DNA of 29,398 bases, taken from a virus. Taxonomy: Duplodnaviria > Caudoviricetes. Made by a program: the position numbers and the translations under genes. Shown here one piece after another: positions 27,725 to 28,859 of this stretch (position 1 is its first letter; the number at the start of each line of letters is the position of its first letter). The stretch lies in IMG/VR virus record IMGVR_UViG_3300042511_000202, positions 1 to 29,398 of that record, one strand, 5' to 3'. Below the pieces are notes generated by a model that was given only the letters and a program-made list of their open reading frames with translations, did not search any database and was not told the DNA's origin.

Positions 27725-27913
27725 TTAGTGTTCAATGTGTTTATATTTCTTACCATTAGTTTTACCAGCTTTAATTCTTCTGGCTAAACGAGAGTTTTCA
27801 CCTACGTAACTTAAATATGTACCATTAACAACATTTAATTCTTTAGGTATAGATGCAATCTGACTCTCAAATGTCTCATTGAGAGTTAATTCTTTTGTGA
27901 TTTTCTGTTTCAT
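27725..27913 (-). CDS. small basic hypothetical protein (62 aa)
   Basis: First ORF after the long non-coding leader; TAGAAAACAT-ATG start motif. Confidence 0.65.
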   Translation of the reverse strand: MKQKITKELTLNETFESQIASIPKELNVVNGTYLSYVGENSRLARRIKAGKTNGKKYKHIEH

Positions 27914-28011
27914 ATGTTTTCTATGTTTAAATTGATTTGTGTTTTACACCTAAAACTTTGATATACTATATTGTTTTAAAACAATCTTTAATAGCTTCAA
28001 AGAAACTGGTG

Positions 28012-28036
28012 CCCTCAACAACTTGGGAAGTTATTA
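28012..28036 (-). ncRNA. collapsed twister-like core (unit C)
   Basis: T-AATA-AC-TTCCCAA-GT-TGTT-GAGGG: keeps TCCCAAG, GAGGG and P2/T2-like pairing; lacks P4, P5 and a correctly placed UAA. Confidence 0.45.
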
Positions 28037-28080
28037 AGTTTTTTATGATGTCTAGCCATCCTGTTATACTAGAATTAATT

Positions 28081-28307
28081 CCCTCTGTATTCAGTTGTAA
28101 CAAGGCTACATATTACCTTGCTTAGGGATTAATGTTTACATTACAACTGCTCACCCTTGGGAGACTAATTACTGACCTTTTACTTACCACCTCAGTGCTG
28201 TTCAATTGGTAATCAGTGTAGTTTCACATCTTAACATATTTGTTTTTGTGTACCAACTTTCGTTGTTAATTAAGAAGTCTTTATATCTACGTGAGAATGA
28301 TACATTA
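28081..28307 (-). ncRNA. twister-ribozyme-like unit A (227 nt)
   Basis: TAA-TGTA-TC-ATT-CTCAC-[128 nt]-TCCCAA-GG-GTGAG-CAGTTGTAA-[40 nt]-TTACAACTG-AA-TACA-GAGGG. Confidence 0.6.
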
Positions 28308-28483
28308 CCCTCTGTATTCAATTGTAATAGTAGGAACTTTGTTTTATGGTCCATGTTGTGCACACATTTTCCAACCTTACTTCTTGTTACCACAGTGTTG
28401 TAAGTTATTCAGCGATATGCCTATTTACCTATTCTGTAGTATATTACAATTGCTAGTCCTTGGGAAACTAGAATGATACATTA
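28308..28483 (-). ncRNA. twister-ribozyme-like unit B (176 nt)
   Basis: TAA-TGTA-TC-ATT-CTAGT-T-TCCCAA-GG-ACTAG-CAATTGTAATA-[112 nt]-TATTACAATTG-AA-TACA-GAGGG; matches the twister order UAA/P2/T2/P4/UCCCAA/T2/P4/P5/P2/GAGGG. Confidence 0.7.
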
Positions 28484-28519
28484 AGATGTTCTGTTAACCC
28501 ACAGTCCATTAAACAAGGG

Positions 28520-28541
28520 ATTTCTAACAACCGTTAGAAAT
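28520..28541. other. perfect 9-bp hairpin at the predicted transcript 5' end
   Basis: ATTTCTAAC-AACC-GTTAGAAAT, flanked by direct repeats ATTAAACAA (28508-28516, 28546-28554). Confidence 0.55.
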
Positions 28542-28551
28542 GTGTATTAAA

Positions 28552-28580
28552 CAAATGTAATAAAAAGGATACTTCAACAA
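28552..28580 (-). promoter_or_regulatory. probable promoter driving the ribozyme-like leader
   Basis: TTG (28578-28580), 18-nt spacer, TACATTTG (28552-28559), in non-coding DNA. Confidence 0.5.
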
Positions 28581-28664: not shown

Positions 28665-28859
28665 CTAATTAAATAGTTCATCAATACTAACACCAGACAA
28701 GACATATAAATCTCGTTCTATATCCATTAATAAACATTCATATAAATCATAAGAAACAAGATCATTATTATATGCTTCTATAAGACTATACTTCCTATTA
28801 ATAAGAAGTTCTATTGCAAATCTAGTAGTTTGTTCTATCATTCTTTCTCTTGGACTCAT
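28665..28859 (-). CDS. hypothetical protein (64 aa)
   Basis: TAGAAAGCA-ATG start context; protein-like composition. Confidence 0.6.
   Translation of the reverse strand: MSPRERMIEQTTRFAIELLINRKYSLIEAYNNDLVSYDLYECLLMDIERDLYVLSGVSIDELFN

Follow-up and report, generated by a model that had tools for sequence, protein, structure and literature searches.

A head-to-tail pair of twister-like, putatively self-cleaving RNAs in the early region of a likely crAss-like phage

The stretch of DNA analysed here (the window) is a virus record of 29,398 bases whose long open reading frames (ORFs) lie nearly all on the minus strand. Its gene content comprises a DNA polymerase, helicases, a primase, rIIA/rIIB and a ParB-like gene, for whose ORF a PDB search gave no match. 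The primase and a helicase best matched crAss-like phages (27-31% identity); the top matches of the DNA polymerase were other phages and are not diagnostic for the crAss-like group. Judged by this content, the window is likely the early region of a crAss-like phage, an assignment that is not formal. A near-identical twin record (L012/L018/L050/L213/L302) was left out as independent evidence. Rfam scans placed a tmRNA at 25021-24577 (-) and tRNA-like matches at 22202-22086 and 21959-21875 (-), one of these matches having a 61-nt inner region; ARAGORN found none. A terminator-like hairpin lies at 29100-29067 (-), and similar ones were seen 5' of units in L020, L033 and L146. The features of the region studied are collected in Table 1.

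Table 1. Features of the minus-strand region with the two abutting units, listed in the direction of transcription of that strand
Feature	Span	Strand	Details
Upstream ORF	28665..28859	-	64 aa; no PHROG match
TAnnTTTG match, putative promoter	28552..28559	-	chance frequency in the window
Conserved P0-like module	28484..28540	-	hairpin, UCCC-bearing linker, second hairpin
Unit B, twister-type RNA, type-P1 order	28308..28483	-	136-nt P5 domain
Unit B, predicted cut			U28483/A28482; candidate general acid A28482, candidate general base G28312
Unit B, stem P2	28313..28480	-	UGUA 28480-28477 with UACA 28316-28313; 4/4 pairs
Unit B, P4/L4	28453..28471	-	P4: 28471-28467 with 28457-28453
Unit B, L4			extra U28466, UCCCAA 28465-28460, GG 28459-28458
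Unit B, T2			UC 28476-28475 with GG 28459-28458
Unit B, T1			CCC 28464-28462 with GGG 28310-28308, plus A28461.A28311
Unit B, P5 domain	28319..28452	-	10-bp basal stem bearing two variable arms
Unit A, twister-type RNA with L4 arm	28081..28307	-	
Unit A, predicted cut			U28307/A28306, right after GAGGG of B; candidate general base G28085
Unit A, P2			28304-28301 with 28089-28086; 4/4 UGUA/UACA pairs
Unit A, P4			28295-28291 with 28154-28150
Unit A, L4 insert	28163..28290	-	128 nt, at the place of the single U in B; arm 1 28290-28218 (conserved internal loop), arm 2 28217-28164, one residual C
Unit A, P5 domain	28092..28149	-	9-bp basal stem
Element C, circularly permuted (P3-like) twister-like RNA	27938..28044	-	no clear P4
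Element C, predicted cut			U27946/A27945, 32 nt before the AUG at 27913
First downstream ORF	27725..27913	-	62 aa; no PHROG match

The initial annotation had described two units, B and A, lying back to back on the minus strand, and this observation is confirmed, with a spacer of 0 nt between them. The covariation that it had read from the pair also held: P4 changes from CUAGU/ACUAG in B to CUCAC/GUGAG in A, with three compensatory changes in a row, and P5, whose stem has 10 bp in B as against 9 bp in A, shows one such change. The pseudoknots of B are putative and were assigned after the description of twister in PMC5408937. The weakness of P1 was borne out as well, since B pairs as ACAU/AUGU in the family register (4/6, both pairs adjacent to the site being mismatched) and A at 2/6 positions, but the word atypical did not fit, because weak P1 is a trait of the whole family. 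The window has exactly two exact copies of the 12-mer TAATGTATCATT and also of the 11-mer AATACAGAGGG, in both cases within the two units; when up to 2 mismatches were allowed, the counts were near chance (18 vs. 14.1 expected for TAATGTATCATT and 10 vs. 8.4 for AATACAGAGGG). A structure descriptor gave 2 matches in the window itself, as compared to 0 over 300 windows simulated with a first-order Markov model. The covariance model R1, built from 30 homologs with the window excluded, recovered both units (B with 52.2 bits, E 1.5e-11; of A its 3' part, with 39.2 bits, E 3.4e-8), and the sole further match in the window at E<1 was the antisense of the P5 of A. Free folding of the region gave z = -1.34 and did not recover the core of A, so that folding energy by itself speaks neither for nor against the fold.

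Pattern scans in three collections gave 133 distinct full units, 117 of them non-redundant, in viral and metagenome contigs. When P2 and P4 were left free and the 3' strand was not sought, 35/35 loci (28 distinct 37-nt keys, one of them from the twin record of the window) had five of five P4 pairs, and the same 35 all carried their own 4/4 P2 complement followed by GAGGG, 12-167 nt downstream. A scan with T2 left free listed 121 matches, among which 44 had 5/5 P4 pairs, every one of these with YC/GG as T2; the remaining 77 matches listed look mostly like chance. In an alignment of 33 units, 91.7% of cells were paired as compared to 74.6% after shuffling (0/500) and 33-48% in slid controls; as these units had been selected for pairing, the percentage is biased upward, and the pair types are less so. 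Two-sided change occurred in two of the four columns of P2, in 5/5 columns of P4 (99.4% paired) and in 9/9 columns of the basal stem of P5 (97% paired). The twister-type fold proposed in the initial annotation is thus supported by the homologs, with P2, P4 and P5 covarying and with the catalytic G and the GAGGG strand present, unsought, in 35/35 loci. Its expectation that P2, T1 and T2 would covary among homologs was borne out for P2; T2 varied on one side only, and T1 is complementary as CCC/GGG but invariant in 33/33 units and hence without covariation, T1 being at least partly fixed in every collection scan.

Among the 117 units T2 was CC/GG in 75, UC/GG in 40 and CC/GA in 2, and the pair closing P4 was C-G in 63, U-A in 25, A-U in 24, G-C in 2, U-G in 2 and C-C in 1. 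An extra U was present in L4 of 89/117 units, and a P5 region (12-257 nt) in every unit. P1 was paired in 60.6% of cells of the alignment, its six positions reaching 0.43-0.63 vs. 0.38-0.60 in shuffled units, and in 370/702 cells over the family. At N-1 most units have U; 12 viral loci carry C or A there. Invariance of A+1 and A+2 is by construction, because both were fixed in every scan. In a collection of species genomes the compact pattern hit 9 loci (L309-L317), 8 of them with a full unit; all are metagenome-assembled and are assigned to unrelated taxa; they may be phage sequences that ended up in bins. In 6/117 units the AUU joiner is replaced by AUAA or ACAA; units of this subtype (L045/L206, L052, L029, L223, L033 and L040) often occur in pairs. 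GAGGG is partly or wholly lost in downstream copies in L229 (614-731), in L437 and in the second unit of L060; second copies can therefore decay, and these three are probably dead. L261 holds on its minus strand (~900-729) a look-alike with P2, P4 and P5 and without UAA, UCCCAA or GAGGG, which has GAGAG pairing with an upstream CUCUC. In L011 a GOLLD-like RNA (1703-1254 (-), 91.8 bits, gathering score 150) ends ~28 nt before a compact unit, and a tmRNA lies downstream.

The 128-nt insert that the initial annotation had reported inside the P4 loop of A is present and could be placed, but it is a conserved arm of the family and not an oddity of this unit. A scan for inserts gave 75 loci, which reduced to 26 non-redundant full units bearing inserts of 108-290 nt; L057 was dropped from this count as a mis-parse across a tRNA-like stretch (~701-1056, where a 5' half that lacks its P4 partner strand is followed by that stretch). 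A two-arm architecture was found in 26/26 of these units, each column of the arms being paired in 24-26/26 and an internal loop being conserved, so the insert of A is the same family domain. The P5 of A is 88% identical to the P5 of a unit with a compact L4 in L225, which points to shuffling of arms. Core, P5 arm and L4 arm would then be exchangeable modules, reshuffled via recombination in the conserved core.

Two conserved elements beside the pair, the module upstream of B and element C, had been overlooked in the initial annotation. The upstream module stands at a fixed distance of 33-34 nt from the unit start in 5 distinct loci, which comprise the twin record of the window and L033, L146, L154 and L312. 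Its UCCCUU can pair with the GAGGG strand of B in the predicted fold, so that it might damp cleavage. Element C occurs in at least 119 viral loci and is very conserved in gut and aquatic crAss-like phages. Its P2 covaries and is paired 4/4 in 104/105 distinct listed copies having the 3' half (6 more are without it), with five pair types among the matches listed and the last two bases of one strand fixed by the pattern; Rfam gave no match for it. If element C cuts, the message of the next gene would begin 32 nt before its AUG. In gut relatives, hatchet ribozymes and RAGATH-7 lie near element C, in unannotated early regions of gut Suoliviridae (L002 1829-1952, L003 2827-2955 and L001 1784-1997); L001 also has a weak HDV-like match at 2168-2261.

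The promoter that had been placed at 28552, at the head of a supposed leader, was not confirmed. The motif TAnnTTTG is indeed there, but it occurs 45 times in the window vs. 45.2 expected, and it is not kept at this position in the four homologs that share the upstream module. Sigma-70-like promoters showed no excess in the window (5 vs. 9.6), and the early genes of the crAss-like phage phi14:2 showed no shared upstream motif (bioRxiv 10.1101/2020.03.07.982082). Because the motif is at chance level and the early genes of phi14:2 are without a common one, the term leader is unproven; from its layout the stretch may be a 5' leader or may lie between genes within a longer transcript, since a same-strand ORF of 64 codons ends at 28665. 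Searches with blastn against annotated phages matched element C alone when the region was used (15 records) and nothing meaningful when a compact unit was used; no cultured host model was thus found. In three RNA runs, only short fragments of relatives were found over 28174-27994 (shares 0.04-0.07); no reads covered unit B, and no read across a joint turned up in this thin coverage.

The twister class was reportedly described by Roth et al. in 2014. With its type-P1 form with auxiliary P0/P5 (RF03160) the present family shares the order UAA-P2-T2-P4/L4(UCCCAA)-P5-P2'-GAGGG with core letters matching the Rfam consensus, a 4-bp P2, a 2-bp T2, a putative T1 of three C-G pairs plus A.A, the bases A+1, A+2 and the general-base G, and a loosely held N-1. 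In contrast, T2 is YC/GG in the family and GC/GC in the class; the family has a 5-bp P4 with a freely varying closing pair (G-C in 2/117), whereas in twister a closing G-C is essentially invariant beside a U.A pair and L4 has 8 nt (PMC5408937). The family L4 carries on its 5' side an extra U or a two-arm domain of 108-290 nt, P5 is always present, P1 is barely above chance, P3 is absent, Rfam gives no score, and head-to-tail pairs with 0-4 nt between units are formed. No twister match was obtained with Rfam in the window or at 8 homolog loci; an 82-nt member alone was unmatched at E<10, and five loci with members of 52-59 nt at E<5, while the canonical type-P5 twister of L181, scanned alongside these last, scored 48 bits. 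Natural compact members were used for this scoring, instead of the units of the window with their inserts trimmed. The Rfam score, the GC of T2 and the P4-closing G-C of the class being wanting, we treat the family as a twister-like variant and not as a filed member of the class; its sequence suggests that it would act in the manner of a type-P1 twister with P5. Rfam does not list the family. The 2,690 published twisters, or those already assayed, may include some of its members.

Read across the B/A junction, the sequence runs P2'-GAGGG-UAA-P2-T2-P4, which is the P5-permuted order of the type-P5 twister (RF02684). The gap between GAGGG and UAA is 0 nt here as compared to 24 nt, with a P1 hairpin, in L181, and the flanking halves of B and A are complete, so that P1-type units stand in tandem, as is required by a duplication model of permutation (PMC10085705). 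The type-P5 twister of L181 (799-861) shares the CC-AUU joiner with this phage family. The T-variant twisters of Schistosoma and the mini-twister (PMC8501958 and PMC5408937) likewise have a defective or missing P1 and lie at element borders, but the Schistosoma variants stand at the head of a retrotransposon that encodes its own reverse transcriptase, whereas the phage units have a different core and stand in records without a reverse transcriptase (0/5). Structured RNAs likewise stand in arrays between small early genes in the ribozyme clusters of crAss-like phages (hatchet RF02678, RAGATH-7 RF03159) and in the case of the early intergenic RNAs of phi14:2; these belong to other RNA classes. 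The literature searched, with passages of PMC6765202, PMC10085705, PMC13725137 and 10.64898/2026.03.07.710320, describes neither the family nor abutting twister pairs.

Taken on sequence grounds, B and A are rather probably a phage variant of the twister self-cleaving ribozyme, set head to tail and chopping an early transcript. The initial annotation had left open a self-cleaving array or a structural family derived from twister, and the evidence leans toward cleavage. Most likely both units would self-cleave between U and A, and B would be freed as a linear RNA of 176 nt. B would fold and cut first (28483/28482), while A is still being transcribed, and A would cut (28307/28306) once its 3' strand exists. 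As the cut of A would fall one base past the last G of B, the RNA released would be the 176-nt B, linear, with a 5'-OH and a 2',3'-cyclic phosphate and with both ends tied into the fold; the next piece would be A plus most of element C (361 nt if C cuts too). A long early transcript would in this manner be split into separately stable, exactly trimmed RNAs. Early intergenic RNAs that are abundant and stable have been described in phi14:2 (bioRxiv 2020.03.07.982082). About 94% of tested natural twisters cleave, and twister tolerates P1 defects, G.U in the 2-bp pseudoknot, any N-1 base and P5 hairpins (PMC11662667); it still cleaves without P1 (PMC5408937). A P0 element lowered twister cleavage (0.40 vs. 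0.85; PMC11662667). Counted against cleavage were the missing Rfam match, the identity of T2, the P4 closing pair, the extra base or arm of L4, the P0-like module 5' of B, the pseudoknot-free folding of the pair given below and the decay of second copies.

Abutment of units was not confined to the window. Scans for junctions in the viral and metagenome collections permitted spacers of 0-30 nt and required U at N-1 and AUU in the second unit. The viral scan returned 43 loci, namely 2 real pairs (spacers 0 and 1), 1 type-P5 twister and 40 chance loci, which were rejected as being without UCCCAAG; the metagenome scan returned 18, with 7 real pairs (spacers 1, 1, 1, 1, 1, 2 and 4) and 11 without a unit. 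With one more pair from L314 (spacer 3), there were ten distinct junctions with a spacer of 0-4 nt and none at 5-30 nt, other neighbouring units being 38-407 nt apart (14 cases); L293 was dropped from the spacer list owing to an overlapping parse (gap -215). A scan for the exact junction gave 5 loci, of which one was the twin of the window and 4, lacking UCCCAAG, were chance matches. Two or more units were present in 14/104 distinct locus sets of the unit scans. P4 differed between partners in 10/10 pairs and there were seven different spacers, which implies several origins or much reshuffling. Under a uniform range of 0-30 nt the chance would be 1e-8 for ten junctions and 3e-6 for seven spacer types, the junctions possibly sharing ancestry. 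In all these pairs the joint lies where the cut is predicted. This recurrent end-to-end packing is a new trait. In L261 the look-alike is followed after 5 nt by a full unit, and that unit after 2 nt by element C.

The packing could have arisen without any benefit. As a neutral by-product of DNA deletion in an array kept compact by selective pressure, the short UA-rich tail of one unit would meet the UAA start of the next, and the excised RNA would be jobless even where the units cleave; we regard this as possible, although on balance unlikely. The spacer plus U does resemble an ordinary 3' tail (TA in the first six bases of 82/110 ordinary tails), other types of module abut too, at the 2 and 5 nt of L261, and the predicted excised pieces are without common size or frame (110-181 nt, 1/10 a multiple of three). 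Nor is P1 raised at the junctions, being paired in 32/60 cells in the upstream units of abutting pairs vs. 370/702 over the family. What does not fit deletion is the distribution of spacers, since a continuum would be expected, yet they are 0-4 nt (10 junctions) or at least 38 nt (14). The figures for P1 also led us to reject selection of the upstream P1 for pairing with the next cut site, and the sizes of the pieces to reject coding circles of the Zetavirus kind.

An unlikely reading, less probable than deletion, is that the units are structural RNAs derived from twister which cleave very slowly or not at all and serve as a nuclease block or as a scaffold displaying the P5 and L4 arms. The departures from the canonical core in T2, the P4 closing pair and the extra L4 base agree with it, as do the missing Rfam scores of the members, the occurrence of decayed copies, the look-alike of L261 that is without catalytic letters and lies 5 nt 5' of a unit, and the large arms, which are conserved and would be unneeded for cleavage alone. 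Set against these, the G and the A of GAGGG were present in 35/35 loci although neither was sought, N-1 varies as it does in active twisters, and the joints coincide with the predicted cut site. In one contig a 10-letter loose end one base past a GAGGG is presumably adapter-like material from the library; a contig end after GAGGG was not used as a sign of cleavage, as contigs cannot show ends.

Folding of the tandem was calculated with ViennaRNA, whose values omit pseudoknots, which favour the in-register fold. Because the two P2 strands are identical, the 3' strand of B can pair with the 5' strand of A (the junction, in P5-permuted register), or the 5' half of B with the 3' end of A (an outer hybrid). 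In these calculations P2 and P4 of A stayed at or below 0.04 and P2 of nascent B at or below 0.22; the hairpin across the junction, between the 3' P2 strand of B and the 5' P2 strand of A, reached 0.86 after the cut of B, and the outer P2 0.64 in one construct; the cross-paired junction P5 was 10/10. The in-register fold had an energy of -83.5, as compared to -88.5 with P2 swapped and -109.7 at the free minimum. The pair might accordingly be a folding switch or trap in which the identical strands cross-pair and a single cut is made per transcript, an explanation that the junction hairpin, the outer P2 and the junction P5 suit but that we hold to be quite improbable. The P5 of B itself was at least 0.98 in all constructs, P2 returned to 0.74 in excised B, the pseudoknots outside the calculation favour the in-register fold, and no permuted member of this subfamily was found among the 61 junction-scan loci. 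We take it from helix geometry that with 0-1 nt between GAGGG and U a permuted active site probably cannot close.

Tandem ribozymes that bound a small RNA are known from retrozymes and totiviruses (PMC13725137); here too, two predicted self-cleaving motifs 110-181 nt apart could release a small RNA with ligatable ends. The present case differs in that it concerns a DNA phage, the piece released would be the body of a ribozyme, the copies are unlike and the sizes are, but for 1/10, no multiples of three. Of the features of the retrozyme kind, near-identical tandem copies were seen in none of the pairs, and RtcB and RVT_1 in none of the 5 phage records inspected. Beyond self-cleavage as such, the units might be ribozyme-bounded RNA cassettes, the cut of one unit setting the exact 3' end of the preceding one; the RNAs of 110-181 nt would be functional, whether linear or closed by host RtcB, and new joints would arise by RNA ligation and copying back into DNA. 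We give this extended proposal little credence. RNA-level joining by itself, with cleaved units ligated into circles or multimers and the joints copied back to DNA, is the least probable explanation: both sides of every joint are borders defined by RNA, tandem ribozymes yield small circles in retrozymes and are proposed to do so in totiviruses (PMC13725137), and the control genome of Bacteroides thetaiotaomicron has RtcB and a reverse transcriptase, but RtcB and RVT_1 were each found in 0/5 unit-bearing phage records (3 of them at least 98% complete), and the two units of a pair are in no case copies of one another (P4 differs in 10/10), unlike in a multimer derived from a circle.

The role of most self-cleaving ribozymes of bacteria and phages is an open question, according to PMC6765202, and the locus is a sharp test, with two predicted cuts 176 nt apart and a product that is the ribozyme body itself. 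If the cassette proposal were true, DNA phages would possess a self-excising, self-shuffling array of small RNAs, and the abutting pairs would be a living intermediate of the circular permutation of twister. If the family does not cleave, a ribozyme fold would have been widely reused for another job. If it does, as we favour, the consensus of twister would be widened to a T2 other than GC, a free P4 closing pair and L4 arms of up to 290 nt, and more than 100 phage RNAs missed by Rfam would become ribozymes.
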